From Patescibacteria group bacterium (lineage in GTDB: Bacteria; Patescibacteriota; Minisyncoccia; Moranbacterales; UBA2206), in the NCBI GenBank assembly GCA_022709735.1, contig JAKLIG010000002.1:130028-194027 (forward strand): a DNA stretch of 64,000 nt, written 5' to 3'. The notes below the pieces were generated by a model. It saw only the letters and a list, made by a program, of their open reading frames with translations, was not told the origin of the DNA and did no database searches. Shown in pieces: positions 3,606 through 50,088 of the stretch (positions within the stretch are counted from its first letter, which is position 1; each line of letters begins with the position of its first letter). The position numbers and the translations under genes are program-made.

Positions 3606-4763
3606 ATGAAACTAATTTGCACTCAAGAAAATTTTAAAAAGGCTATTTATAATTGTGAGAGAGTAGTTTCTAAAAAAAATACTCTACCAATTTTAAATAA
3701 CATTCTTTTTGAAGCCCAAAAGGGTAGTTTAAAGCTATCTGCCACAAACCTAGAAATAGGTGTTTCTTCAAAAATAGGCGCAAAAATAGAAAAAGAGGGG
3801 AAAATAACCATCCCAGTAAGAATTATTAGTAATTTTTCCACTAATTTGCCAGGTGGTGAAAATATAACTCTAGAGCTTTTGGATAATAATTTGAAAATAA
3901 AAAGCGGGGGAAATAGAGCTGTATTAAAGGGAATTTCTGCGGAAGATTTTCCTCTTATTCCTTCTAAAAAAACCGAAAACCTATTAGATTTGTCTAGTTT
4001 TGAGTTAAAAAACGCCATTTTAAAGGTTATGCCAGCAGTAGCCTTTAATGAAGCGAGGCAAGAATTAACTGGAATTAACCTTATTTTAAGGGAAAAAGAG
4101 CTTTGTTTTGCGGCCACTGATAGTTTTCGTTTGGCGGAATTTAGGCTTAAAATAGAGGAAAAAAACACAAATCCGGTTAATTATAGGGCTTTTATTGAAA
4201 AAAATGAAAATATTATCATTCCTTCAAATGTACTTCTAGAACTTAATCGAATTTTAGCGCCGGAAATTGAAACTAGAGTAAAAATTACAATTGAAGAAGG
4301 GCAGATATTTTTTGAGATTGATGGCACAAAACTAGTTTCCCGGCTTATTAATGGGAAATATCCGGAATATAAACATATAATGCCGACAAATTTCAAAACT
4401 AGGATAGTGGGCGAGAAGCAAGTTTTGCAAAACGCAATCAAAATGGCGAGTGTTTTTTCTTCTGGTGGATCAAATGAGATAACGCTAAAAATTGAGGCAG
4501 AAGAAAAGAAAATATCTATTCTATCCTCGAGTGCAGAAGCAGGAGAAAACACCGCAGAGCTCAAGTTTGACATTACTGGGCCGTCTCAAGAAGTGGTGTT
4601 TAATTCTAAATATCTTTTGGATGGAATTAATTCAATTTCTTCCGGTCAGGTGGCAATTTTATTAAATAGCGAGGCTACGCCAGTGGCCGTTCGGGAAATT
4701 AATGAAAAAACCGGCGAAGTTTTGGATGATTTCACTTACATCGTTATGCCGATTAAGAATTAA
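3606..4763 (+). CDS. dnaN: DNA polymerase III beta sliding clamp
   Basis: 385 aa, MKLICTQENFKKAI... three-domain clamp-like length; immediately after dnaA. Confidence 0.9.
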   Translation: MKLICTQENFKKAIYNCERVVSKKNTLPILNNILFEAQKGSLKLSATNLEIGVSSKIGAKIEKEGKITIPVRIISNFSTNLPGGENITLELLDNNLKIKSGGNRAVLKGISAEDFPLIPSKKTENLLDLSSFELKNAILKVMPAVAFNEARQELTGINLILREKELCFAATDSFRLAEFRLKIEEKNTNPVNYRAFIEKNENIIIPSNVLLELNRILAPEIETRVKITIEEGQIFFEIDGTKLVSRLINGKYPEYKHIMPTNFKTRIVGEKQVLQNAIKMASVFSSGGSNEITLKIEAEEKKISILSSSAEAGENTAELKFDITGPSQEVVFNSKYLLDGINSISSGQVAILLNSEATPVAVREINEKTGEVLDDFTYIVMPIKN

Positions 4764-4789
4764 GAAGAAAGAAGTAGGAAGTAAGATAT

Positions 4790-4905
4790 AAATAAAATCC
4801 AAAGTTCAAAGCTCAAATTCCAAATAAAGCCAAAATGACAAAATTAAAAATTTAGATTTTGGATTTGATTTGGAATAATTTGGATTTTGGAATTTGAATT
4901 TAATA
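4790..4905. repeat. imperfect inverted repeat built from CAAAGTTCAAA/TCCAAAT units (left arm) and their complements TTTGGATTTTGGAATTTGAATTT (right arm)
   Basis: Read directly: aaatccaaagttcaaagctcaaattccaaataaagccaaaatgacaaaat ... attttggatttgatttggaataatttggattttggaatttgaattt. The right arm runs into the annotated trxB start. Confidence 0.5.
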
Positions 4906-5840
4906 TGGTGAATAATAATATTTATGATTTAATAATTATTGGTGCAGGACCAGCGGGACTCTCGGCTTCGATTTATGCTTCGCGCTACGCGATAAAACAT
5001 CTTATTGTCGGCACGGTTTTGGGTGGGCAAATTACCGAGACACATAAAATTGACAACTATCCCGGCATGGAAGATATGAGTGGTTTTGAGTTTGGACAAC
5101 TTTGGGGGAAGCATGCAAAAAAATATGGCGTGGAAATTATTCCATCTTTAGTTCAAGAAATTGAAAAAGAAAATAATATTTTCAGTTTAACTTTAGCGGA
5201 CAAAAACATCTTAAAAGCGCGGACTATTCTTTTAGCCACTGGCACGAAAAAAAGAGAATTAAATATTCTTGGAGAAAAAGAATTTCTTGGCAAAGGTGTT
5301 TCTTATTGCGCCACTTGTGATGGATTTTTTTATAAAAATAAAAATGTCGGCGTAATTGGTGGATCAGATAGCGCCGTTACTTCCGCGTTATACTTGGCTG
5401 ATTTAGCCCAGAAAGTTTTTTTAATTTATCGAAAAAGTGAACTTCGCGCCGAACCGTTTTGGGTGGAGCTGGTTAAGAAAAATAATAAAATTGAAGTAAT
5501 CTATGATACAAATGTTATAGAGATAATGGGCAAAGAAAAATTAGAAAAAGTAAAATTAGATAAAAGTTATAATAATTCAGATGAGTTAAATTTAAACGGA
5601 CTTTTTATTGAAGCCGGATCAGAACCAAGTGTAGATTATATTGAAAATTTAGGCGTTGAAACAGATGAAGGCGGATACATAAAAATCCAAAAAAACGGCG
5701 CGACGAATATTCCGGGAATTTTTTCGGCTGGCGATATTACCGACGGTTCTGACAAATTTAGGCAAGTCATTACCGCTGCTTCCGAAGGGGCAATTTCTGC
5801 CAGAGGAATTTATAATTGGCTTCGAAAAGAAGGGAAATGA
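4887..5840 (+). CDS. trxB: thioredoxin-disulfide reductase
   Basis: FAD motif IIGAGPAGLSASIYA; redox-active CATCDG; NADPH site GGSDSAVTSALYL. The true start is probably the second ATG at 4905 (MVNNNIYDLIII...), because the first 18 nt belong to the upstream repeat. Confidence 0.85.
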   Translation: MEFEFNMVNNNIYDLIIIGAGPAGLSASIYASRYAIKHLIVGTVLGGQITETHKIDNYPGMEDMSGFEFGQLWGKHAKKYGVEIIPSLVQEIEKENNIFSLTLADKNILKARTILLATGTKKRELNILGEKEFLGKGVSYCATCDGFFYKNKNVGVIGGSDSAVTSALYLADLAQKVFLIYRKSELRAEPFWVELVKKNNKIEVIYDTNVIEIMGKEKLEKVKLDKSYNNSDELNLNGLFIEAGSEPSVDYIENLGVETDEGGYIKIQKNGATNIPGIFSAGDITDGSDKFRQVITAASEGAISARGIYNWLRKEGK

Positions 5841-7883: not shown

Positions 7884-10445
7884 TTACGGAATTGTTGTCT
7901 TTACGGAAATACTTTTTGAATCAGTGTCGCCGTTCTTATCTTCAATAGTCGCCTTAATTGAAAGGGTGGTATTTTTTTTAGAATCAGGAACGGAATAAGT
8001 ATAACTTAACGAAGAATCAGAGGAAGAGGTAATATTATCGCCCTCAATAGACAGGGTGATTTTTTTAACTCCGAAAGGTGCATTTGCTTTGGCTTTAATA
8101 GTAAAAGAAGATGAGGTGATCGTGTCTCCATTCGAAGGGGAAGAAATATCGACACTAGGTTTGAATTTTTTAAAATCATCCGCCTTGCATTCTTTTTCTG
8201 GTGTTGGTCGAGAAGAATAGCCGTCCTTTTTATCTAGCCACTTTTCAATAGCCTTTTCCCAATTCTTAAATTGCGGATCATCTTCTGGATCTTTTGGAGC
8301 ATCTCCGCGCGGATCATCTTTTTGAACATAATAAAGAATAGAATGAGCATCGGCAAATTTTTTCTTATCTCTTTCGGATTCTGGGCAATTATCATTTGCT
8401 AAGCAATAATCATTAGATCCGGGAATTTTGCAAACAGATATTTCTTTTTTATCATCCAGTTTTCCATCTAAAACATCCTTGCCAGTTTCTTCTTTTTCAT
8501 ATTTAGGAAACTCTTCAATATTATAATTAGCCAAGGCCTTGTCCATAAATTCCCGCCAAATCGGTGCAGCAACATAAGAACCATCGGCCCCCTTGGCCAT
8601 TATGGAATTGTCGTTATTTCCTGCCCAAACACCAGCGACAAGCGAAGGAGTATAGCCGATTGTCCAACCATCTCGCCATTCATTGGTTGTTCCAGTTTTA
8701 GCGGCGACTGGGCGGTCATCAAAACGCAAAGGATTTTTTTCGCCAAAGACTGGAGCGCGAAGATCATTGGTGGATAAAATATAATCTATCATTGACACAT
8801 ATTTTTCTTCAATCACTCTTTGTCCATCACTGGGTTTGTATTGTTCCAGCACATTCCCACTGCCATCCTCTACTTTTAAAATAGAAATAATTGAATGGTG
8901 GATTCCGCCGGTAGCAAAAGTAGAAAAAGCATTCACATGATCAATAAGTTTAACTTCACCTCCGCCAAGCACTAAAGATAAACCATAATCATCAGGATTT
9001 TTAAGCGTGGTTATTCCCATTTTGTGAGCAGTATCGATGGAGTTTTGTACGCCGGCTAAATATAATGTTTCAACGGCCGGGACATTAAGAGACATTGCTA
9101 GGGCGTCTTTCATTTTGAGAAGTCCGCGATTTTCGCCGTCATAATTTTTTGGATTATATTCTTTTCCGCTGTCAGTGGAAAAATTAGTATCCACATCCCA
9201 AAGATTAGTTTCGGGCGTATAACCTTTTTCAAAGGCAGTTAGATAAACATAAGGCTTGAAAGAAGAGCCGGGCTGGCGAAGGGCAGTAGCTACATTGAAA
9301 TTTCCTTCAAACTGGCAATTTTTTCCGGAGATGCAACCAGTTGGCGTTGCTTTTCCGAAATAATCTTTTGATCCAACCATCGCTAAAACTTGGCCAGTTT
9401 TTGGATCCATTGCTACAAGCGCTTGGTTGTTAGATTTATAAACTTTTGCATCTTTTTCGGAATTATTTTTTATCGCTTCTTCAGCAATTTTTTGTTTATC
9501 CCAATCAAGCGTGGTATAAACTTTGAGCCCGCCTTGTTCCACCATTTGCTCGCCGTATTTTTTTTCAAGCATTTCCTTGATGTACATCACAAAATGCGGA
9601 GCGCTGATATTATCCGAGAAGGGTTTTATTTTTGAAAAAACATCTGTTTCTTTGGCAGTGTTCGCTTGATCTTCGGTGATGCATCCAAGCTTAACCATTT
9701 GATCCAGAGCATATTCTTGGCGAGCTTTTAGATTTTCAGTATGACTGCCGTAAGGAGAATAATAAGAGGGTGCTTTGGGAAGTGAAGCTAAGAGGGCGGA
9801 TTCATCAAGCGTGAGCTCGCTGGCATGTTTGCCAAAAAAAGTTTGGGAGGCGGATTCTACGCCATAAGCATTAGAGCCATAAGGAATTTCATTGAGATAC
9901 ATCGCAAGAATTTCATTTTTTTCAAACTTTTGTTCGAGTTCAAGAGCCAGAATAACTTCTTTAATTTTTCGGGTAAAAGTTTTTTCCGAAGTAAGAAGAG
10001 ATTGTTTGATAAGTTGTTGAGTTATAGTTGACCCGCCTTGTGCGGCGCCAAGATTAAAAATGTCTTTGAACGCAGCGCGCAAAATACTTTTCGGCTGAAT
10101 GCCGATATGATTATAAAAAGCCTGGTCTTCGAGAGCAATGGCAGCAAACTTGATTGTGTCAGGCATTTGCTCGAAAGGAATTTCCGTTCTTTTTTCTTCG
10201 CCATGAACTTCATAAAGAAGATGATCTCCGGTGCGGTCGTAAATTTTGGTTGATTGCACGACAAAGCGCTTATTGAGATTTCCTGGGCTTGGAAGATCTT
10301 TGGCAAACCAAGCGAAAACACCGACTGTAAAAAGTAAAATAATTCCAAAGAAAATCAGTGACCATTTTCTCAAGAATTTCCAATTAATCCTAAAATGCTT
10401 TTTCCCAGAAAAATCACTCCTATTTCTATGCTTAAATATATACAT
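7884..10445 (-). CDS. class A penicillin-binding protein (glycosyltransferase + transpeptidase) with a C-terminal Ig-like extension
   Basis: GT51 motifs (EDQAFYNHIGI, GGSTITQQL); transpeptidase SSFKP (SxxK) and KTGTT. Possible own promoter TTGAAA-17-TAAAAT on the minus strand in the 10446-10514 gap. Confidence 0.9.
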   Translation of the reverse strand: MYIFKHRNRSDFSGKKHFRINWKFLRKWSLIFFGIILLFTVGVFAWFAKDLPSPGNLNKRFVVQSTKIYDRTGDHLLYEVHGEEKRTEIPFEQMPDTIKFAAIALEDQAFYNHIGIQPKSILRAAFKDIFNLGAAQGGSTITQQLIKQSLLTSEKTFTRKIKEVILALELEQKFEKNEILAMYLNEIPYGSNAYGVESASQTFFGKHASELTLDESALLASLPKAPSYYSPYGSHTENLKARQEYALDQMVKLGCITEDQANTAKETDVFSKIKPFSDNISAPHFVMYIKEMLEKKYGEQMVEQGGLKVYTTLDWDKQKIAEEAIKNNSEKDAKVYKSNNQALVAMDPKTGQVLAMVGSKDYFGKATPTGCISGKNCQFEGNFNVATALRQPGSSFKPYVYLTAFEKGYTPETNLWDVDTNFSTDSGKEYNPKNYDGENRGLLKMKDALAMSLNVPAVETLYLAGVQNSIDTAHKMGITTLKNPDDYGLSLVLGGGEVKLIDHVNAFSTFATGGIHHSIISILKVEDGSGNVLEQYKPSDGQRVIEEKYVSMIDYILSTNDLRAPVFGEKNPLRFDDRPVAAKTGTTNEWRDGWTIGYTPSLVAGVWAGNNDNSIMAKGADGSYVAAPIWREFMDKALANYNIEEFPKYEKEETGKDVLDGKLDDKKEISVCKIPGSNDYCLANDNCPESERDKKKFADAHSILYYVQKDDPRGDAPKDPEDDPQFKNWEKAIEKWLDKKDGYSSRPTPEKECKADDFKKFKPSVDISSPSNGDTITSSSFTIKAKANAPFGVKKITLSIEGDNITSSSDSSLSYTYSVPDSKKNTTLSIKATIEDKNGDTDSKSISVKTTIP

Positions 10446-14889: not shown

Positions 14890-15393
14890 TTAATGGTTTA
14901 AATTATTTAATTTCCGGCTATTTAAATGACAGATGGCAATCGCAATGGCGTCCGCTGTGTCATCGGGTTTCGGCAGTTTTTCCAAATGCAAAATATTTTT
15001 TGTCATCATTTGCATTTGTTTTTTCTCGGCTCGGCCATATCCGGTGATCGCTTGCTTTACTTGGAGCGGAGTATAACTCGAAACTCTAACATTATTTTGC
15101 TTTAAAGTCAAGAGAATTGCGCCTCTGGCTTGGGCCACAGTGATGATTGTTTTTTGATTTTTAAAAAAGAAAATTTCTTCCACTCCCGCTTCCTGTGGTT
15201 TATATTTTGCAATTATCTTTTCAATATCCCTCGAAATTTCCAAAATCCTTTCCGCGTCAGTTTTTTGAGGCGAAGTAGCAATATGCCCATAAGAAACCGG
15301 TTCTATTTTTCCGTTTTTTTCTTCTAGTATCGCCCAGCCAGTGGTGGCGGTGCCAGGATCAATTCCTAAGACGCGCAAGTTATCATTTTTCAT
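14890..15393 (-). CDS. ruvC: crossover junction endodeoxyribonuclease RuvC
   Basis: MKNDNLRVLGIDPGTATTGWAILEE... catalytic Asp in GIDPG; 167 aa. Confidence 0.85.
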   Translation of the reverse strand: MKNDNLRVLGIDPGTATTGWAILEEKNGKIEPVSYGHIATSPQKTDAERILEISRDIEKIIAKYKPQEAGVEEIFFFKNQKTIITVAQARGAILLTLKQNNVRVSSYTPLQVKQAITGYGRAEKKQMQMMTKNILHLEKLPKPDDTADAIAIAICHLNSRKLNNLNH

Positions 15394-15451
15394 AGCTTAA
15401 TTATACTTCCAAAACGAGTTTTTTAAAAGTTTTTTGAGACAAAAAAATAAC
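15323..15451. repeat. direct repeat copy 1 (ruvC 5' end + upstream); about 96% identical to 16217-16344
   Basis: tctagtatcgcccagccagtgg...gacaaaaaaataac is present twice, with 5 mismatches over ~128 nt. Confidence 0.85.
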
Positions 15452-15538: not shown

Positions 15539-16153
15539 CTAATTGGGTATGATAGAAAAATATCCGACGGGTGTTTTAATAATTTTACCGCCCCAAGACT
15601 CAACTTCTTTTTTTGAATAGCGCTTTATAGCGGTGAAATCTTCCATTATAAAACTATCATTTTTGATACAATTAATTTTTAAATTAATTGATTTAAAATA
15701 TTCTTGAGCCAAGCCATTATCAAATTCTTCTCCGTATACAGAAATAATGATGACTTTGCCAAGCTCCTTCATTTTCGCAATGGATTTGTCCTGTTCTGGA
15801 ATGTATCCCAATGTGTTGTTGAGACAAATCACATAATCAAAATGAGGCAAGGCCGGAGGATTAGTAATATCGCCATGAATAAAATTTACACAGAGACCTG
15901 CTATGGCGATTTTTTGTTTTGCGAGTTCTACTAAAGAAGCTTCAATTTCAAGGCCAGTAATTTTCAAATCAGGACGAACTTCAAGTAAACGAATAGCTCT
16001 TGCTCCATCCATACTGCCAACTTGCAAAACACGAGCATTTTTTGGGAGCATAAGACGTAGCAGGTCAATTTCTTTGAGCCAATTATCTCTATTTGGTTTT
16101 GGTATATTTTCTAAAACGTCACAGTTTACATACACATCTTTTAATGAGGGCAT
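15539..16153 (-). CDS. class I SAM-dependent methyltransferase (cargo of the insertion)
   Basis: Motif I VLQVGSMDGARAI; acidic post-I LEIE; 204 aa. Confidence 0.7.
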   Translation of the reverse strand: MPSLKDVYVNCDVLENIPKPNRDNWLKEIDLLRLMLPKNARVLQVGSMDGARAIRLLEVRPDLKITGLEIEASLVELAKQKIAIAGLCVNFIHGDITNPPALPHFDYVICLNNTLGYIPEQDKSIAKMKELGKVIIISVYGEEFDNGLAQEYFKSINLKINCIKNDSFIMEDFTAIKRYSKKEVESWGGKIIKTPVGYFSIIPN

Positions 16154-16216
16154 ATTGAATTAATGAAAAAATGAGTTTTTACAAATTATCGAAAATTTCT
16201 TCTATTTTAATTTTTT

Positions 16217-16344
16217 CTAGTATCGCCCAGCCAGTGGTCGCTGTGCCGGGATCAATTCCCAAGACGCGCAAGTTATCATTTTTCATAGCTTAATTATACT
16301 TCCAAAACGAGTTTTTTAAAAGTTGTTTGAGACAAAAAAATAAC
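16217..16344. repeat. direct repeat copy 2. It carries a fossil ruvC start fused to a fossil yebC 3' end (16172-16200 copies the yebC stop region).
   Basis: Minus-strand reading from ATG (cat at ~16288-16290) gives MKNDNLRVLGIDPGTATTGWAILEKIKIEEIFDNL*: ruvC N-terminus joined to the yebC C-terminal residues EEIFDNL. Confidence 0.8.
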
Positions 16345-27441: not shown

Positions 27442-27939
27442 ATGCAAAAAATAACTTATATAACTGAAAATTCTAAACAAACTCAAAAGCTTGGCGAAAC
27501 TTTAGCCAAGGAATTAAAAGGCGGGGAAATAATCTGCCTTGTCGGTGAGCTTGGCGGAGGAAAGACAACTTTTACGCAAGGTTTTCTCAAAGGCTTGAAA
27601 GTCAAAGGGCCATATACAAGCCCAACCTTTCTTGTAATTAAAAATTACAAGAAAGAAATCTCAATTTCCAAATCCCAAATTCCAAATAAATCTCAAAATC
27701 CAAAATCTAAAACCTTGCCTACCGGCAGGCAGGTCCAAAATATTTATCACATAGATACTTATAGGATCAATGCGCAAGATATAATAAATCTTGGCTGGGA
27801 AGAAATGGTGGCTGATAAAAAAAATATTATTATAATAGAATGGGCGGATAGGATAAAAAAGATAATTCCAAAAAATAGTTTATGGATTGAGTTTAGTTGG
27901 GTTGATGAGAAAAAGAGAAAAATAACACTGAAAGACTAA
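27442..27939 (+). CDS. tsaE: tRNA t6A37 biosynthesis ATPase TsaE with an in-frame low-complexity insert
   Basis: GELGGGKTTFTQGF P-loop; the insert KSQIPNKSQNPKSKTLPTGRQ is encoded by CCAAAAT-type heptamer repeats plus the palindrome TTGCCTACCGGCAGGCAGG. Confidence 0.8.
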   Translation: MQKITYITENSKQTQKLGETLAKELKGGEIICLVGELGGGKTTFTQGFLKGLKVKGPYTSPTFLVIKNYKKEISISKSQIPNKSQNPKSKTLPTGRQVQNIYHIDTYRINAQDIINLGWEEMVADKKNIIIIEWADRIKKIIPKNSLWIEFSWVDEKKRKITLKD

Positions 27940-30766: not shown

Positions 30767-30849
30767 TCTTTCCTAAAGCGAAGCTTTAGGAAGCACTGAC
30801 AATAATAAAACGGCTTTGGATTTTTCCAAGGCCGTTTTTGCTTGTTAGT

Positions 30850-33187: not shown

Positions 33188-33275
33188 ATTTAATTTACGA
33201 ACTACGAAAATAATACGAAATACTAAAATACGAAAAAATGTTTCGTATTTCGCTCATTTCATATTTCGTAAAACA
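33186..33275. repeat. TACGAAA/TTTCGTA palindromic leader element (copy 1)
   Basis: tttacgaactacgaaaataatacgaaatactaaaatacgaaaaaatgtttcgtatttcgctcatttcatatttcgta; CGAAATAC/GTATTTCG inverted repeats. Confidence 0.5.
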
Positions 33276-34460: not shown

Positions 34461-35438
34461 ATGATTATTTTTCTCTTTGGCGAAGACTCTTTCCGGTCTT
34501 CCCAAAAAGTGCTTGAAATAAAAAAGAAATTTCTATCTACTGACAAGTCCGGCTCTGGCTTGTCAGTTTTTGACTGTGAAAATGAGAAAGAAGAGGCGAG
34601 AAAAATTATTAATGCCATAAATACATCAAATCTTTTAGCTCCAAAGAGGCTAGTTATTTCCAGAAATTTAATTTCAAAATCAACTGACGATGAACAAAAG
34701 AAAATATTAGAATTTTTGAAAAGCAAAAAGAAACTTAGTGAAGATAAGGATGCAGTCTTGATTTTTTGGGAAGGAGAAATGCCGAGAAAAAATAATGCGC
34801 TGTATAAATTTTTGGATTCCAAAAAGGGTGAAGTTAAAAGTCAGAATTTTGAAAAACTAGCTGGAATAAAATTGGAAGCCTGGGCGCTGAAAACAATAAA
34901 AGAAATTAATCCGGAAGCGAAAATTTCAAAAATATCTCTTTCTAAGCTTATCGCTTTTTGCGCGGAGGATAATTTTTTGCTATTTCAGGAAATTCAAAAG
35001 CTTGTGTCTTATGCCGACAAAGAAATGATTAGCGAAAAAGATGTTGACCTTCTGGTGAAAACTAATTTAAACAGTAATATTTTTCAAATGGTGGATGCAA
35101 TTGGGGCGAATAATAAAAAAGAAGCGCTCGCGCTTTTCCACAATCATTTGCAAAAAGGCGACGATCCTTTTTATTTATTATCAATGTTTTTCTATCAATT
35201 TAGAAATATGCTCAAAGTGGCTGATTTATATGACCGTGGTACAAGATCAGAATATGAAATTGCGCGCGTCGCCAAGCTTCACCCATTTGTGGTCAAGAAA
35301 ACCTTGTCCCAAATGCGAAATTTTGATTTTTCCAAACTCAAAAATATCTACAACAAACTTTCAAAGCTGGATACGGCTGTTAAGACGGGGAAGATTGAAA
35401 TAAAACTGGCGATGGACAAGTTTATAGCGGAATTATAA
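34461..35438 (+). CDS. holA: DNA polymerase III delta subunit-like
   Basis: 325 aa with MIIFLFGEDSF... N-terminus and AAA+-lid-like C-terminal helices. Confidence 0.55.
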   Translation: MIIFLFGEDSFRSSQKVLEIKKKFLSTDKSGSGLSVFDCENEKEEARKIINAINTSNLLAPKRLVISRNLISKSTDDEQKKILEFLKSKKKLSEDKDAVLIFWEGEMPRKNNALYKFLDSKKGEVKSQNFEKLAGIKLEAWALKTIKEINPEAKISKISLSKLIAFCAEDNFLLFQEIQKLVSYADKEMISEKDVDLLVKTNLNSNIFQMVDAIGANNKKEALALFHNHLQKGDDPFYLLSMFFYQFRNMLKVADLYDRGTRSEYEIARVAKLHPFVVKKTLSQMRNFDFSKLKNIYNKLSKLDTAVKTGKIEIKLAMDKFIAEL

Positions 35439-35440
35439 TT

Positions 35441-35775
35441 GTACTTTTTCTCGCCGTGAGAAAAAGTACCAAAAAGAACTCTCAGCCCAATTTTGTCTCT
35501 GACAAATTTTCAGCTGGCTCGCTAAAATTTATGTTCCGCTTCGCTCCATAATAAATTTTTTAACGCTCGCCAGTTTCAATTTGCCTGCCTGCCGGTAGGC
35601 AGGTATCATCGCCAAAATAGGCTGAATGAAAATTAGAAAAATAAAATTTACAGCGAAGGGAGCAGAAAAGTTGAGCTTTAATGGGAAGCCTAAGATTTTC
35701 AAAAAGCTCAACTTTAATGAAGCGCAATTTTTTCAAAATAAAAACACTCCCTTTGCAGGGAGTGTTTATTTTTAC
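35441..35775. repeat. ~330-bp non-coding repeat element, copy A (5' hairpin, conserved 130-nt core, variable middle, conserved hairpin, 3' terminator hairpin)
   Basis: About 85-90% identical to 48386-48707 across aactctcagccYaattt...cgcttcgctccataataaattttttaacgctcgc and gttgagcttta...aaagctcaactttaatgaag...ttttttcaaaataaaaac. Terminal hairpin CACTCCCT-TTGC-AGGGAGTG (35745-35764). Confidence 0.6.
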
Positions 35776-35781
35776 AGAATA

Positions 35782-36051
35782 TTATTTTTTCGCGGCATTC
35801 TTTACTTGCTTATTAAGTCTAGATTTCATTCGGGCGACGGCGTTTTTGGTGAGAACTTTCTTTTGAGCGGCCTTGTCCAAAGCTTGAATAGATTTCTTGA
35901 GATATTCCTGGGCTTTGTCAATTTCTCCGCCAGCGAGCGCTGATTTTGTGATTTTTATCGCGCTTCGAAATTGCCCTTTAATCTTGTTATTTTTCAGGGT
36001 TTTTCTTTTTGTCACCCGCATATACTTTTTAGCAGCTTTGATGATTGGCAT
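35782..36051 (-). CDS. rpsT: 30S ribosomal protein S20
   Basis: MPIIKAAKKYMRVTKRKTLKNNKIKGQFRSAIK... Confidence 0.9.
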   Translation of the reverse strand: MPIIKAAKKYMRVTKRKTLKNNKIKGQFRSAIKITKSALAGGEIDKAQEYLKKSIQALDKAAQKKVLTKNAVARMKSRLNKQVKNAAKK

Positions 36052-38107: not shown

Positions 38108-39079
38108 ATGGATAGCAATTTTCTTCAATCAAAAGAATGGCGGGGATTTCAGGAGGTGGTGGGGCGAAAGACGTCTTGTATTGATAGTGAAAATTTTTCT
38201 GCCAGTATAATTGAACATAATCTTCCAATTGTTGGAAAGTATTTTTATATTCCGAAAGGACCAATTATAGAAAATCAAAATGCAAATCTCAAAAATAAAA
38301 ATGACAATGCAAAATTAAAAAATAATTTAAATGAATTAATAGATTTGGCGGAAAAAGAAAAAGCGGGATGGATTAGGATTGAGCCGGAGAATGAGGAAAT
38401 TTTGGAAATGATTAAAAAAAATATAAAAAATAAAATAACTAAGGCTCCGCATGAAATGCAACCGAGAGAAAGTCTAATTCTTGATATTACAAAAACCGAA
38501 GAAGAATTATTGGCAGAGATGAAAAGTAAAACTCGATATAACATTAAAGTTGCTGAAAAACATGGAGTAAAGATTAAGAAACAAGAAAAAAGCGAGGAAT
38601 ATATCGAAGAATTTTTGAGGCTAACAAAAATAATGGCCAAAAGACAAGGAATCGAAACGCACAGTGGAGAATATTATCAAAAAATGTTTGAGATAATTCC
38701 GGGCGATGTTATTAAATTATATGTGGCGGAATATAAAAATAGAGTAATCGCCGCGAATATTATGATATTCTTTGGCGACACTGCGACTTATCTTCACGGC
38801 GCATCGGATGACCAGTATAGAAATGTTATGGCGCCGTATCTTCTTCAGTGGCAAGCGATAAAAGATGCGAAAGCTGAAGGATTTAAAAAATATGATTTCT
38901 TTGGAGTGAAAGTTAAAAACAAGTCTGGAAAATCCTGGGAAGGAATAACCAGATTTAAGACTGGATTTTCTCCAAGCACAGATCCTATTGAATTTCCGGG
39001 CTGTTATGATATAGTGATTAATCCAATAAAATATTGGGTATATAGAATAATTCAGAAAACAAAGAGTTTTGTAAGATAA
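38108..39079 (+). CDS. FemAB-family (FemX-like) peptidoglycan peptide-branch aminoacyltransferase
   Basis: MDSNFLQSKEWRGFQ... GNAT-like FemAB N-terminus; contains a low-complexity insert NQNANLKNKNDNAKLKNN. Confidence 0.65.
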   Translation: MDSNFLQSKEWRGFQEVVGRKTSCIDSENFSASIIEHNLPIVGKYFYIPKGPIIENQNANLKNKNDNAKLKNNLNELIDLAEKEKAGWIRIEPENEEILEMIKKNIKNKITKAPHEMQPRESLILDITKTEEELLAEMKSKTRYNIKVAEKHGVKIKKQEKSEEYIEEFLRLTKIMAKRQGIETHSGEYYQKMFEIIPGDVIKLYVAEYKNRVIAANIMIFFGDTATYLHGASDDQYRNVMAPYLLQWQAIKDAKAEGFKKYDFFGVKVKNKSGKSWEGITRFKTGFSPSTDPIEFPGCYDIVINPIKYWVYRIIQKTKSFVR

Positions 39080-39084
39080 TTTTT

Positions 39085-40395
39085 ATGAAAAAGTTGGTCC
39101 CACAATCCATCAAAAATATCTATCATCTTTTCCAAGCCGTCTTGGCTAATTTGATTTATGGCTTTCCTTCAAAAAATATAAAAGTTATTGGAGTAACAGG
39201 AACAAATGGCAAGACTACGACTGTGCAGATGATCACAAAGATTCTGGAAGAATCGGAGAAGAAAGTTGCCATGGCGTCAACGATCAATTTTAAGCTAGGT
39301 GAAAAAGAATGGGTAAATGCAACAAAATTTACCACTCTCTCCAGTTTCAAAGTACAGAAATTTATTAAAGAGGCGGTTAAAACTGGTTGCGAATATTTAG
39401 TTTTAGAAACTTCTTCCCATTCATTAGATCAATTCAGAACTTGGGGAATAAAATATGACACGGCTGTTATTACAAATATAACTCGCGAGCATTTGGACTA
39501 TCACAAAACGATGGAAGAATATCGCCGAGCTAAATTGAAATTATTTAAAAATGCGAGAGTAGTAGTGGTTAATTTGGATATGGAAAAGCCGCAAAATTTT
39601 ATTAAATTTGGTGAAGAGAATATTTTCGGATACACTATGGAAAATCAAAAATCAAAAATCAAAAATCAAAATGACAATATAAAATTTAAAATTATTCAAG
39701 CCAAAGATATTGAATTAGGAATTGATTATGCTAAATACAAAATATCCGCCCAAGGCGGACCAGCCTTTGGCTGGCAAGATACAAACTTCAGGCTTAATTT
39801 GCTTGGCAAATTTAATATTGAAAACGCTTTGGCAGGGACCTGTGTTGGCTTGGCCTATGGAATTTCTTTAGAAACAATAAAAAACGCGCTTGAAAAAATT
39901 AAAGGCGTGCCGGGAAGAATGGAGCGAGTGCCAAACGATGAAGGAATTGAAATTATTATTGATTATGCGGTGACGCCAGATAGCTTGGAAAAGGTGTATA
40001 GTCTTATTTCTCAAAGTAAAAAAGAAAATGCAAAAATTATTTCAGTCTTTGGTTCTTGCGGAGAGCGTGATCGTGGGAAGCGGCCAATTATGGGCGAAAT
40101 TGTTTCGCGCTATGCGGATTATATAATTCTCACTAACGAAGATCCGTACGGAGAAGATCCAGAACAAATAATTGGGGAAGTTGAATCAGGAATTAAGAAG
40201 CATGAATTAGGAAAAAATTACTGGATAATTATGGATAGAAGAGAAGCAATTAAAAAGGCCTTGCAAATTGCAAAGCCTGGAGATATTTTTGTGATTACTG
40301 GAAAAGGAGCGGAAGAGGTTATGGCAATCGGCGAAAAAAGAATTCCGTGGAATGAAAAAAAAGTTATCCAAGAAGTCTTGCAAGAATTAGTGTAA
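39085..40395 (+). CDS. murE: Mur ligase (MurE-like UDP-MurNAc-tripeptide synthetase)
   Basis: VIGVTGTNGKTTTVQMI P-loop; DNAANP-like and C-terminal Mur-ligase domains; in-frame AAAATCA x4 heptamer at 39640-39675. Confidence 0.75.
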   Translation: MKKLVPQSIKNIYHLFQAVLANLIYGFPSKNIKVIGVTGTNGKTTTVQMITKILEESEKKVAMASTINFKLGEKEWVNATKFTTLSSFKVQKFIKEAVKTGCEYLVLETSSHSLDQFRTWGIKYDTAVITNITREHLDYHKTMEEYRRAKLKLFKNARVVVVNLDMEKPQNFIKFGEENIFGYTMENQKSKIKNQNDNIKFKIIQAKDIELGIDYAKYKISAQGGPAFGWQDTNFRLNLLGKFNIENALAGTCVGLAYGISLETIKNALEKIKGVPGRMERVPNDEGIEIIIDYAVTPDSLEKVYSLISQSKKENAKIISVFGSCGERDRGKRPIMGEIVSRYADYIILTNEDPYGEDPEQIIGEVESGIKKHELGKNYWIIMDRREAIKKALQIAKPGDIFVITGKGAEEVMAIGEKRIPWNEKKVIQEVLQELV

Positions 40396-46780: not shown

Positions 46781-46870
46781 AAATTTACGAACTACGAAAT
46801 TAACGAAATACGAAACAAGAAGAAATATTTTTCGTATTTTTGTATTTCGTATTAAATTCGTATTTTGTAA
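46781..46870. repeat. TACGAAA/TTTCGTA palindromic leader element (copy 2)
   Basis: tttacgaactacgaaattaacgaaatacgaaacaag...tttttcgtatttttgtatttcgtattaaattcgtatttt; shares the TTTACGAACTACGAAA start with copy 1. Confidence 0.5.
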
Positions 46871-46874
46871 ACAT

Positions 46875-48374
46875 ATGAAAAGAACCAAGATTGTCGCGAC
46901 TATTGGACCAGCGACTGATTCCAAGGAAAAACTAAAAAAATTAATCAAGGCCGGGATGAATGTCGCCCGAATTAATTTTTCTCATGGCGATCAAAAATCT
47001 AATGGGAAATTAATAAAGTATATAAAAGAACTTAGAAAAGAATTAAAAACTCCAATTGGGATTATGGCTGATCTTCAAGGGCCGAGGATTAGAACATTGG
47101 TTGAACAGGATATTAAGGTAGAGAAAGGGGAAACTATCTTGGTAGGAGACACTTCTTTTGGATCTCAAAATCCAAAATCCAAATTTCAAATTTCAAATAA
47201 AATCCAAAATCTCAAATCCAAAAATAATACTAAATCCAAAATCCAAAATCCAAAATATTTTCTTTTGGATTGGCCAGGAATAATTAAAAATATAAAAATC
47301 AAAAACGAAATTTTGATTGAAGACGGGCTAATCAAACTCAAAGTAATTGGAAAAGAAAAAGATTTTCTGAAAGCTGAAGCGATAAACGGCGGAGTTATCA
47401 AAAATCACAAAGGCGTGAATATTCCGGATACTAATTTGAAATCCGGCGCGGTGACGAAAAAAGATTTGGATGATTTGGAATTTGCACTTTTGCAAGATGT
47501 GGATTTTATCGCGCTGTCTTTTGTGAGTAATGCCAAGGAAATAATTAATATTAAAAATAAAATTGGAAAAATTCTTGGACGGAAAAATCAATTGCCTCAA
47601 GTCGTGGCAAAAATTGAAAGAAAAGAAGCGATAAAAAATATTTCTGAAATAATCAAAGCAACGGATGCAATTATGGTGGCGAGAGGCGATCTCGGAATTG
47701 AAATGAATGAAAGCAAAGTCGTGATTTACCAAAAAGAAATAATTGCCAAATGCTTGCGTTCAGCGACTCCCGTAATTGTGGCAACCCAAATGTTAAATTC
47801 CATGATTGAAAATCCTCGCCCGACGCGAGCGGAAGTAGGCGATGTCTCAAACGCGGTTATTGATCATACTGATGCGGTAATGCTTTCCGGAGAAACAGCC
47901 AATGGCAAATATCCGATTCAAGCGGTAGAAACAATGACGGAAATTATAAGAAACACAGAAAAATCGCCTTTTGACAATTTGGAACATGGCTTTTTGGGAG
48001 ACAAAAAAAACAGTGCTTCAGCCGCGATTGCCCACAGCGCCCATGAACTTTTGAAAGACACAGCTTCCAAGGCAATTGCAGTGGCAAGCGTTTCTGGTTT
48101 TACGGCGCGAATGATTTCGAGGCATCGTCCGGAAAGTTTGATTTTTGTCATGACTAACAATGAAAAAACTCATCAGCAACTAAGTTTGATTTGGGGAGTG
48201 CAAAGTTTTGTTTTGCCAGATTGCAAAACGATGGACGAACTTATTGATAGATCAATGGAAACTTTGAAAAAAGAAAAGATGGTAAAAATTGGAGATAAAT
48301 TGATTGTAGTTATGGGTCGTCCGCATAAAACCAAAGAACATATGAGTCTCGTGAAGGTGGAGGAAGTGAGATAA
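46875..48374 (+). CDS. pyk: pyruvate kinase with a ~35-aa in-frame low-complexity insert
   Basis: MKRTKIVATIGPAT...; the insert SFGSQNPKSKFQISNKIQNLKSKNNTKSKIQNPKY is encoded by CCAAAAT heptamer repeats at 47164-47254. Confidence 0.9.
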   Translation: MKRTKIVATIGPATDSKEKLKKLIKAGMNVARINFSHGDQKSNGKLIKYIKELRKELKTPIGIMADLQGPRIRTLVEQDIKVEKGETILVGDTSFGSQNPKSKFQISNKIQNLKSKNNTKSKIQNPKYFLLDWPGIIKNIKIKNEILIEDGLIKLKVIGKEKDFLKAEAINGGVIKNHKGVNIPDTNLKSGAVTKKDLDDLEFALLQDVDFIALSFVSNAKEIINIKNKIGKILGRKNQLPQVVAKIERKEAIKNISEIIKATDAIMVARGDLGIEMNESKVVIYQKEIIAKCLRSATPVIVATQMLNSMIENPRPTRAEVGDVSNAVIDHTDAVMLSGETANGKYPIQAVETMTEIIRNTEKSPFDNLEHGFLGDKKNSASAAIAHSAHELLKDTASKAIAVASVSGFTARMISRHRPESLIFVMTNNEKTHQQLSLIWGVQSFVLPDCKTMDELIDRSMETLKKEKMVKIGDKLIVVMGRPHKTKEHMSLVKVEEVR

Positions 48375-48385
48375 TTCTTTTTTTT

Positions 48386-48707
48386 ACTTTTTCTTTCCGC
48401 AAGAAAAAGTAACAAAAAGAACTCTCAGCCTAATTTCGTCTCTGACAAATTTTCAGCTGTCTCGCTAAAATTTATGTTCCGCTTCGCTCCATAATAAATT
48501 TTTTAACGCTCGCTAGCTTCAATTTGTGTCATCGTCGAAATGGGCTGAAATAAAATACAAGGAAATTCTTGAAATAAATTTAGAATATATTTGGAAAAGT
48601 TGAGCTTTAGGGCGGAGCCTAAACTGTTCAAAAAGCTCAACTTTAATGAAGAGCCAGAATTTTTTCAAAATAAAAACCCCGGGCGGATGGTGATCACGCT
48701 CGGGGCC
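48386..48707. repeat. ~330-bp non-coding repeat element, copy B
   Basis: See copy A. 5' hairpin TACTTTTTCTT-TCCGC-AAGAAAAAGTA; 3' hairpin CCCCGGGCG...CGCTCGGGG (48677-48705). Confidence 0.6.
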
Positions 48708-48720
48708 TTAAGACAAGTTT

Positions 48721-49131
48721 CTATAACTTGACAAACTCTCCCTTAACACGAAAAATAATTTCAGGAAAGTTTTTTGTGTCCAAATAAAAGCTTTTCTTCC
48801 CTATAAATACAGACCCTTCCTTGCCGTTCAAAATAGCATCTTCAGAAATTTTTAATGGTGAAGGAAATTGCGCACGATTCAGAAAGGTATGTATAGTTTC
48901 TTTTGGAGAGGCATCTCCCGAAAAAAGATCTGAAAGTTCTAACCCAGGCATTCCCTTTGCGGGAACAGAGAATATTAACGGATATACTGTACTTCCATTT
49001 TTAAGAACAATTCCGATTTTTCCCGTTTCAGGCATGTAACGCAAACGATATAAGAGCTCAAATTTTTTTAATTTTTCACCCTCAACTTTTAAGATAATGT
49101 CTATTTCCTCTAAAGTGGTAATATTTTTCAT
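48721..49131 (-). CDS. hypothetical protein (136 aa)
   Basis: ORF followed on the minus strand by hairpin + U-run. Confidence 0.45.
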   Translation of the reverse strand: MKNITTLEEIDIILKVEGEKLKKFELLYRLRYMPETGKIGIVLKNGSTVYPLIFSVPAKGMPGLELSDLFSGDASPKETIHTFLNRAQFPSPLKISEDAILNGKEGSVFIGKKSFYLDTKNFPEIIFRVKGEFVKL

Positions 49132-49297
49132 GACGTATTCTCCCTTTTCTTTATATTGTTAATTTGCAATTATTACCTTAATAACAACACAATATAAAAC
49201 AAAAATAATATTTTGTCGATAGATTATTTCAAATGTTTTATTATTAAAACCAAATAAACCCTTAAATCAGCCATTATTTATTTAATAATATTAAAAT

Positions 49298-49338
49298 AAT
49301 GTCATAATTATTGACATTTTAGGTATTCTTGCTATGCT
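49298..49338 (+). promoter_or_regulatory. promoter with a perfect palindromic operator AATGTCATAATTATTGACATT over the -35; TTGACA-16-TATGCT; leaderless start
   Basis: Palindrome 49298-49318; tatgct 49333-49338; ATG at 49345. Confidence 0.5.
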
Positions 49339-49344
49339 ATTGGC

Positions 49345-50088
49345 ATGAGCGAACAAGAAAAAATGTTAATAGAATACGGGCTAAGCCCTAATGAAGCTAA
49401 GGTTTATTTGGCAATGCTCCTTTTTGGACATAATACGGTTTTATCAATTTCACAAGAAACAGAGATAAAAAGGCCGACAGTTTATATCACACTCGAAGGC
49501 TTGCTCAAAAAGGGTTTGGCGAAAATTATTGTTAAAGGCAAGAAAAAAACATATCTGCCGGAAGAACCAGAAAAATTAGTTCAGCTTTTAGAAACCAAGA
49601 AAAGATCTATCGAAGAAATTTTGCCGGAATTAAAAAATAATTATTTTAGCCAGAAAGAAAAACCTAAAATAATTTCTTATGAAGGAAAAGACGGGATTAG
49701 AAAAATATACCGAGAAACATTAAGAAGTAAAACAGAAGTTCTTTGGTTCGGTTCGGTTAAGGATATTTTCGAAGAATTTATGGAAAGCTTTGAGACTGAA
49801 AAGAAAAGATTGGCGAACCCCAATGGCTCCAGGGAAATTATAAATAATATTACTTTTGATAAGAGCTATGCCAAAAGAATTAATGCACAAAAAAATCCTA
49901 AAGAAAGGGTAAAAATATTGCCAAATAGTCAATTTTTCCCCAGTGTTGATAACATCATATATGAAGACAGGGTTGTAATTCTTTCAGTTAAAAAAAATTT
50001 CTATGGAGTAGTCATAGAAAACAGTGATATAGCCAATGCCTATAGAACAATGTTTGAACTGGCATGGAAATCAGCTGTAGAGCCTTAA
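49345..50088 (+). CDS. TrmB-family HTH transcriptional regulator (paralog 3)
   Basis: ...YGLSPNEAKVYLAMLLFGHNTVLSISQETEIKRPTVYITLEGLLKKGL... Confidence 0.7.
   Translation: MSEQEKMLIEYGLSPNEAKVYLAMLLFGHNTVLSISQETEIKRPTVYITLEGLLKKGLAKIIVKGKKKTYLPEEPEKLVQLLETKKRSIEEILPELKNNYFSQKEKPKIISYEGKDGIRKIYRETLRSKTEVLWFGSVKDIFEEFMESFETEKKRLANPNGSREIINNITFDKSYAKRINAQKNPKERVKILPNSQFFPSVDNIIYEDRVVILSVKKNFYGVVIENSDIANAYRTMFELAWKSAVEP

Follow-up and report, generated by a model that had tools for sequence, protein, structure and literature searches.

Two non-coding elements in a 64,000-nt stretch of the Patescibacteria contig JAKLIG010000002.1 (the window), here called copies A and B, share a core unit made of a short hairpin (hp1), an A-rich linker and an imperfect hairpin of 125–150 nt (the rod), and five further full copies (C–G) were found elsewhere, giving seven in all. 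The fold of this family is maintained by compensatory changes. The family occurs in several genomes, with loci that are filled in some close relatives and empty in others, and appears in both orientations and in truncated or tandem forms. Our favored reading, to which we give a probability of about 0.55, is that it represents an uncatalogued family of non-coding, structure-conserved and probably non-autonomous intergenic repeats in Candidatus Moranbacteria (Parcubacteria, candidate phyla radiation (CPR)). A sequence-only reading of the window had pointed to two similar non-coding stretches on the plus strand, 35441-35775 and 48386-48707, and a repeat search bore out both their position and their similarity. 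That reading overlooked the long covarying hairpin, which is the main feature, and counted resident terminators and an unrelated 20-nt palindrome (pal20) as parts of the element.

All copies align and fold to a single architecture. hp1 has a 12–14-bp stem, whose 5′ arm is rich in pyrimidines, and a C-rich loop, and all eight hp1 instances carry compensatory stem changes; the similar hairpin that had been noticed at the start of each window copy is this hp1, and it is found in every copy. The A-rich linker (CAAAAAGAACTCT) is conserved in copies A–E and G. The rod is a single long irregular hairpin with the base CAGCC/GGCTG (CATCC/GGATG in E and CCGCC/GGCGG in F), above which short helices are separated by internal loops of 1–5 nt. 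Below the apex lies an invariant core, GCTAAAATT / AATTTTTTAACGC, in which GCTAAAATT pairs with AATTTT and which also holds an unpaired TTAAC and a GC:GC clamp, whereas the apical stem varies from 17 nt in copies A–C to GC-rich hairpins of 30–37 nt in D–G. The core unit measures ~190 nt, or 330 nt when the 3′ module is included; this 3′ block is an accessory module of copies A and B, absent from C–G, and its hairpin has a perfectly conserved stem and a variable loop between the two. The parts in the window are as follows.

35441..35469, plus strand: copy A hp1, 12-bp stem GTACTTTTTCTC/GAGAAAAAGTAC with loop GCCGT, beginning 2 nt past the holA stop codon
35470..35481, plus strand: copy A A-rich linker CAAAAAGAACTC, whose complement is the U-rich tract 3′ of the rod on the opposite strand
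35482..35625, plus strand: copy A rod, from TCAGCC to GGCTGA, with the core GCTAAAATT / AATTTTTTAACGC near the apex and CTGACA-18-TAAAAT in the 5′ arm; covariance-model match 35479-35630, 139.7 bits, E 1e-34, fold z = −4.7
35584..35603, no strand: pal20 (CCTGCCTGCCGGTAGGCAGG), inserted in the 3′ arm of the copy A rod, absent from B–E
35627..35664, plus strand: copy A AT-rich spacer between rod and 3′ module, poorly conserved
35665..35747, plus strand: copy A 3′ module, hairpin AAAGTTGAGCTTT(23 nt)AAAGCTCAACTTT, then TAATGAAGCGCAATTTTTTCAAAATAAAAAC
35742..35767, both strands: bidirectional holA/rpsT terminator AAACACTCCC-TTTG-CAGGGAGTGTTT, resident in the locus and outside the element
48385..48411, plus strand: copy B hp1, TACTTTTTCTT/AAGAAAAAGTA with loop TCCGC, beginning ~10 nt past the pyk stop codon; compared with copy A, a C-G pair is replaced by T-A in a compensatory change
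48412..48424, plus strand: copy B A-rich linker ACAAAAAGAACTC
48425..48548, plus strand: copy B rod; covariance-model match 48422-48553, 151.8 bits, E 7e-38, fold z = −4.4
48594..48677, plus strand: copy B 3′ module, hairpin GTTGAGCTTT (48599-48608) / AAAGCTCAAC (48632-48641)
48678..48706, minus strand: GC-rich hairpin, the terminator of a 136-aa open reading frame (ORF), outside the element; the terminator scan did not return the hairpin itself, and its U-run, on the minus strand only, was placed by eye from the sequence

The repeat search over the window aligned 35439-35583 of copy A with 48382-48526 of copy B (145 nt, 92% identity) and 35665-35725 with 48594-48654 (61 nt, 87% identity). Between the copies the 5′ block is 92–95% and the 3′ block 85–87% identical, and 22-mers of either block occur exactly twice in the window, against 0.00–0.02 expected. 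By segment, identity is 95% for the rod 5′ arm and apex, 86% for the rod 3′ arm, 85% for the 3′ module, 49% for the spacer between rod and 3′ module, and 44% for the terminal GC hairpins. The two conserved blocks of the sequence-only reading both exist, but their boundaries have to be redrawn: the 130-nt block is composed of hp1, the linker, the rod 5′ arm and the apex, and the supposedly divergent ~60-nt middle holds the conserved rod 3′ arm (..TCATCGYCRAAATRGGCTGAA), joined by pal20 in copy A only. No ORF is conserved between the copies, as had been stated. Small ORFs considered as candidates (MFRFAP in the apex, a TTG-started ORF in the 3′ module, and MK(R/SQ)NFFKIK) were rejected, as by eye they have no Shine-Dalgarno sequence, are unconserved in D–G, and run into the terminator or antisense to rpsT. 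A publicly annotated 76-aa gene at 10076-10306 (minus strand) of the related locus L012 lies wholly inside copy E and is probably a spurious call.

The evidence for a conserved fold comes from seven copies in about four lineages. In an alignment of all seven, fitted to a covariance model, 22 of the 40 rod pairs have changed on both sides in a compensatory way, and pairing holds in 90.4% of cells, vs 30–49% in controls whose partners were slid by 1–3 columns; none of 500 shuffles reached the observed values. An independent MAFFT alignment of five copies agrees, with RNAalifold returning 51 pairs, 18 of them with double-sided changes, and every rod folds far better than its dinucleotide shuffles (z = −3.6 to −8.3). 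Three compensatory doubles are found even among the recent copies A, B and C: ATTTTG:CAAAAT in copy A became ATTTCG:CGAAAT in copy B, TGA:TCA in A and B became CGA:TCG in C, and a G-C pair became T-A within CTGGC:GCCAG.

The pairing does not single out a strand. In the model alignment G-U pairs and A-C/C-A mismatches are balanced (7 vs 5), and copy E, in its hp1, and the 3′ module, in its inner stem, have G-U pairs on the nominal strand. On the strand that runs against the nominal orientation, the identical pairs are more stable by 2–7 kcal/mol in all seven copies, and z-scores favor that strand in five of the seven, although shuffles of the G+U-richer strand fold better too. On the opposite strand a conserved U-rich tract (GAGUUCUUUUUG) follows 3 nt after the rod. 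Both RNA and a folded single-stranded DNA substrate are compatible with these strand data.

A 34-mer of the 5′ block recovered copy C from JGI metagenomes, at locus L008 and at the same place in L029. This copy comprises hp1 plus a 5′ block that runs as far as ...GGCTGAATGAAAA; there is no 3′ block, and a YgjP-like gene comes immediately after. Homologues of holA are labelled Candidatus Moranbacteria / Parcubacteria in their source records. Copies D–G all lie in holA-rpsT spacers of related Candidatus Moranbacteria: copy D in L011 (holA 75% identical), copy E in L012 (74%), where a truncated D-like 5′ half precedes a full copy of another subtype, and copies F and G in L028 (71%), where they stand tail-to-tail in opposite orientations and the hp1 loop of G is inverted relative to its rod. 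The seven copies score 57–154 bits (R1) and 92–144 bits (R2) with the covariance models, and everything else scores at most 29 bits. One extra match, at L027 8134-8289, was set aside as an assembly snap-back: it looks like such an artifact, being a perfect long palindrome at a contig end, inside a ruvA-like gene, where the model gave false matches on both strands. Copies A, B and C are 89–95% identical, much closer to one another than to the copies that relatives carry at A's locus. Copy C and the window strain share run SRR5007146 (L003, L004, L030) and the consecutive JGI samples 3300009771 and 3300009776, and the short-read contigs L003, L004 and L030 end inside copies A, B and C; because of these shared samples and contig ends, a single genome probably contains all three. 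The sequence-only reading had allowed that only its two copies might exist, as a chance local duplication. The window by itself does hold two copies only, but with five more in other contigs and genomes, evolving by compensatory change, a duplication without family or function can be dismissed for practical purposes.

Several loci are occupied in some genomes and empty in others. The holA-rpsT spacer without the element measures 43 nt in L027, 55 nt in the P0002 contig, which belongs to the closest relative (holA 81% identical), 105 nt in L019 and 128 nt in L017, and in L025 only the left arm of hp1 is left, followed by other short repeats. At the locus of copy C, the called HU and YgjP-like genes stand 35 nt apart in L031 (YgjP-like protein 89% identical), vs a spacer of ~290–365 nt in L008/L029, depending on the start codon. 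When filled L029 is set against empty L031, ~265 nt stand in place of AATTATT, with the right-hand insertion boundary marked by a conserved TGnTATAAT promoter. The truncated-plus-full arrangement at E, the tail-to-tail pair F/G and the mixing of subtypes in one spacer point to repeated events at the holA-rpsT site. The earlier suggestion of a miniature inverted-repeat transposable element (MITE) holds in substance: multiple copies, empty sites, both orientations, truncated or tandem forms, small size, the lack of a conserved ORF and three copies of 89–95% identity, probably in one genome, are all MITE-type traits, but the pairing of terminal inverted repeats with target-site duplications was not seen, nor could a transposase be linked to it. 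We propose that the element is, or recently was, mobile in a non-autonomous manner and copied into spacers at gene ends, in which case selection for copying would act on the folded single strand, whether DNA or RNA, and a putative trans-acting enzyme would recognize the fold, as in REPIN/RAYT or other hairpin-dependent systems.

A number of observations weigh against this reading. Compensatory changes in a palindrome can arise without selection, by intrastrand template switching. The single aligned pair of filled and empty sites (L029 vs L031) shows no target-site duplication, and no terminal inverted repeat lies outside the rod; the rod arms are inverted repeats along their whole length, and hp1 and the linker extend the unit on one side only, so that it is asymmetric and its ends form no clean terminal inverted-repeat pair. 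No transposase or other enzyme is linked to the element, and no related autonomous insertion sequence (IS) sharing its ends was seen in ~400 kb of related loci. Copy number may be low: there are two copies in 64 kb, and the covariance models found no further copy in the window, where filters were off, or in ~330 kb of related loci, a small and biased sample. Five of the seven copies sit in one spacer, the one that was searched, which also fits vertical inheritance with losses. The contrast in copies A and B between structured blocks at 85–95% and a spacer at 49% suggests that purifying selection or gene conversion has been at work, and a host-useful RNA would explain it as well. Lastly, the RAYT-like Y1 gene of L011/L012 is flanked by CCTAAAGC-TTC-GCTTTAGG rather than by hp1 or the rod, and the covariance model detects no rod near the Y1_Tnp genes of these two loci.

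The same observations bear on a second reading, the chief rival of ours and possible though unlikely, in which the family is a genuine structured non-coding RNA gene. Here hp1 and the rod (~190 nt) would form the mature RNA, inherited vertically in the holA-rpsT spacer and occasionally duplicated; its host role could be that of a protein sponge, an RNase III substrate or processed regulator, or an antisense regulator, with duplications and losses as ordinary gene-family dynamics. Strong covariation combined with invariant unpaired nucleotides such as UUAAC, the invariant asymmetric internal loop GC-U-AAAAUU / AAUUUU-UUAAC-GC, the three doubles among the recent copies, the drift of the spacer while the paralogues' structured blocks kept their identity, and the occurrence of the element in one and the same spacer in four lineages are what such a gene would leave. 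It sits less well with the absence of the element from several close relatives, including the closest, with truncated and inverted copies, with the lack of an Rfam family match, and with strand data in which the 7 vs 5 count picks no strand and the z-scores lean to the opposite one. No conserved promoter was found upstream of hp1, which begins 2–10 nt past a stop codon, and no conserved promoter and terminator delimit the structure as an independent small RNA (sRNA) gene, the terminators being specific to each locus.

The internal promoter-like sequence that had been noted, TGACA-18-TAAAAT, is present in copies A and B, but its role as a promoter of the element is unsupported. CTGACA-18-TAAAAT matches the consensus at 10 of 12 positions in A and B and at 9 of 12 in C. 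Both hexamers lie within the rod 5′ arm, paired in the covarying stem, where the TGACA segment is one covarying helix, and the −35 is not conserved in D–G (by eye, 2–3 of 6 consensus matches in D and E). An RNA that began after the −10 would be without the 5′ arm, and the covariation-supported structure could not form in it. This makes it very improbable that the functional product is a ~200-nt sRNA which starts at this site, includes the 3′ module and ends at the downstream terminator, as the sequence-only reading had offered. The terminator after copy A and the 3′ hairpin with its conserved stem and variable loop suit that proposal, but the 3′ module is missing from five of the seven copies, copy B has no plus-strand terminator, and copy C runs into a protein gene with its own extended −10. 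The terminal GC hairpins, which had been taken as shared and bidirectional, are not homologous; that of copy A is the resident bidirectional holA/rpsT terminator, which has a homologous hairpin in L019, where the element is absent, and that of copy B has its U-run on the minus strand only. We also rejected hp1 as an intrinsic terminator: on the plus strand its stem is followed by CAAAAAG and no U-run, and on the minus strand only copy A satisfied the loose scan criteria (5 T in the 8 bases after the stem), the others having no U-run.

At both window copies a plus-strand gene converges on a minus-strand gene, as had been claimed, and the flanking genes were confirmed.

34461-35438, plus strand: holA, 5′ flank of copy A
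35782-36051, minus strand: rpsT (ribosomal protein S20), 3′ flank of copy A
46875-48374, plus strand: pyk (pyruvate kinase), 5′ flank of copy B
48721-49131, minus strand: 136-aa ORF, 3′ flank of copy B

Every copy lies downstream of a gene on each strand, an arrangement that invites a reading as a purely cis-acting element for transcription or RNA stability, such as a back-up terminator or insulator, spread by ordinary recombination. The opposite strand, with its U-rich tract and its greater stability in all seven copies, would favor such a role, as would the facing pair F and G, which would form a bidirectional unit, and the position of copy C, where read-through from the convergent, overlapping dnaE would arrive. 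We nevertheless regard this as improbable: a stem of ~60 bp with invariant internal motifs exceeds the needs of a terminator, canonical terminators already adjoin A, B, D and E, the strand asymmetry is partly compositional, and hp1 is left unexplained. A mobile, non-autonomous repeat could itself affect transcripts, in that read-through from a neighboring gene would produce the long hairpin, to which the opposite strand would add the U-rich tract, and we speculate that the rod and this tract may terminate or stabilize transcripts, like REP and ERIC.

Searches of known families and collections returned nothing related to the element. With Rfam 15, no family reached the gathering score on either window copy, nor was there a real match at E ≤ 10, or at E ≤ 0.5 on four related loci; the Rfam/Infernal check that the sequence-only reading had proposed matched no known family. 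In the window, the gathering score is reached by two tRNAs only. On the elements, the strongest matches below threshold, 30 bits vs thresholds of 45–60, are all to terminator-type sRNA models, and sub-threshold matches overall are terminator-like sRNA or microRNA noise. A 20-mer scan of GTDB-representative genomes gave two chance matches only (Akkermansia and Crocinitomicaceae); three motifs searched in IMG/VR gave 2, 0 and 61 chance matches, none confirmed by inspection or covariance model; and blastn against phage and plasmid collections gave no match. By reasoning, we rejected a retron, a T-box or riboswitch, the template and variable repeats (TR/VR) of a diversity-generating retroelement (DGR), IS200/IS605 ends, an IS110 bridge RNA, a single-strand origin, and a CRISPR or TIGR array, as in each case the required neighboring gene, motifs or array is missing.

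The closest analogues are hairpin-type intergenic repeats, namely REPINs, ERIC and palindromic MITEs. REPINs and REP sequences, which RAYTs (Y1 HUH transposases) mobilize, are non-coding, extragenic long hairpins that often lie between convergent genes, are non-autonomous, can act on transcripts, and keep their structure rather than their sequence. The element resembles them in that it forms a hairpin in which compensatory changes keep the pairing intact, and a RAYT-like Y1 gene flanked by a REP-like hairpin of its own is present in these Moranbacteria genomes; the element differs in that no doubled short REP can be made out in the rod, the apparent copy number is low, and hp1 makes the unit asymmetric. 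The window contains no RAYT-like gene. ERIC/IRU, Correia, RUP and BOX elements are imperfect palindromes of ~125–150 nt that sit in transcribed intergenic regions near gene ends and are patchy at orthologous sites; ERIC-like elements include internal-insertion variants and fold into long hairpins as RNA, and for ERIC there are reports of compensatory changes. Unlike these, our element has no signature of terminal inverted repeats with target-site duplications, carries an extra 5′ hairpin and linker, resides in a CPR host with a very small genome, and has no sequence similarity in Rfam or the phage and plasmid collections. Integron attC sites are imperfect palindromes with conserved structure and boxes but variable sequence and apex, and work as folded single-stranded DNA. 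They are similar to the element in size, conserved boxes and variable apical structure, but the boxes of the element are sub-apical instead of basal and do not fit RYYYAAC/GTTRRRY, there is no integrase or cassette array, and the copies do not stand at the 3′ end of every cassette. The rod-like shape, comparable length and promoter-like hexamers recall 6S RNA, but the element, with internal loops of 1–5 nt, has no large central bubble and no Rfam 6S match at E ≤ 10, and its truncated, inverted and multi-copy arrangements do not fit.

CPR/Patescibacteria genomes are ~1 Mb in size and are usually called streamlined. The family described here is a covariation-supported repeat family with a working covariance model, and our literature search on repeats in Moranbacteria, CPR or Patescibacteria found nothing relevant, including no paper on non-coding repeats in CPR/Patescibacteria. 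Its neighborhood holds at least three other small palindromic modules (pal20, the REP-like hairpin by the RAYT-like gene, and ACGAA arrays), some of them in frame in essential genes. Active hairpin-type elements may therefore populate such genomes, reshaping gene ends and breaking short-read assemblies. If mobile, the element would provide a strain-tracking marker and a route to the mobilizing enzyme; if an RNA, it would be a new structured class from an uncultivated phylum and among the very few covariation-supported, CPR-specific non-coding RNA classes.

pal20 is a separate, independent mini-element. Its second occurrence in the window, which had been reported within tsaE at 27717-27736, is present there, but the coordinates are 27714-27733, with one mismatch.

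27714..27733, no strand: second window copy of pal20, in frame in tsaE, encoding LPTGRQ; the insert is absent from the TsaE of L019

Further occurrences are at L028 4027-4046 and 4356-4375, L008 116-133 and L012 16153-16170. It lies in the hp1-rod linkers of F and G, is an insertion relative to the model in copy A, and occurs in frame in a protein with DNA polymerase III alpha domains (‘LPAGRQG’) and in a FemAB-family gene. Low-complexity repeats of the AAATCC/CAAAAT type are found in pyk (47160-47260) and tsaE (27640-27712), where they encode Lys/Asn/Gln/Ser-rich inserts, such as SQNPKSKFQISNKIQNLKSKNNTKSKIQNPK in pyruvate kinase, that are absent from the L019 and L020 orthologues; related repeats lie at 4790-4906 and 38262-39691.

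The REP-like hairpin is found in the window as TTCCTAAAGC-TTC-GCTTTAGGAA at 30770-30792, after polA, and in relatives at L011 7001-7019 and 7233-7251 and at L012 488-506, 3281-3299, 3513-3531 and 3986-4004. Both of these relatives have it on the flanks of, and within, a syntenic gene for a 222-aa Y1 (IS200-like, RAYT-like) transposase, a gene absent from the window. Palindromic ACGAA ... TTCGT arrays lie directly upstream of the start codons of a DUF3048 gene (33194-33272) and of pyk (46784-46871); their sites are 88–89% complementary to each other, similar ACGAA repeats follow holA and pyk in L019, and the arrays could be a regulator-binding array or another repeat family.

Copy B stands at the junction of a block made up of the 136-aa ORF and a TrmB-family gene (48721-50088), between pyk and the gene for a phosphoenolpyruvate-utilizing enzyme (PPDK-type Pfam domains). 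This block is not at that place in L019/L020 (the comparison was with L019 19491-19662), and there the 136-aa ORF follows polA; pairs of a TrmB-family gene and a small divergent ORF occur at several variable positions across related loci. In another part of the window, a 134-nt direct repeat, 96% identical (15318-15451 and 16211-16344), brackets a 204-aa ORF (15539-16153, minus strand), and its left copy overlaps the 5′ end of a 167-aa ORF (14890-15393, minus strand), which looks like a cassette insertion that duplicated the 5′ end of its neighbor. Between copy G and rpsT, L028 carries a GC-richer insert of ~650 nt (4420-5050) in which no gene is called, and which contains two small ORFs after Shine-Dalgarno sequences, one of 24 aa and one encoding a 44-aa Cys-containing peptide, MPELITGRIRGQTTGAFAHDDTDICKDLIAPLGTLKTLVCDCGA. 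L012 (1741-3313) holds an IS110-family transposase gene beside a 454-nt non-coding stretch, and L031 (5499-6885) holds a DGR with bAvd and a reverse transcriptase; genomes of this small kind thus commonly harbor mobile and hypervariable systems.

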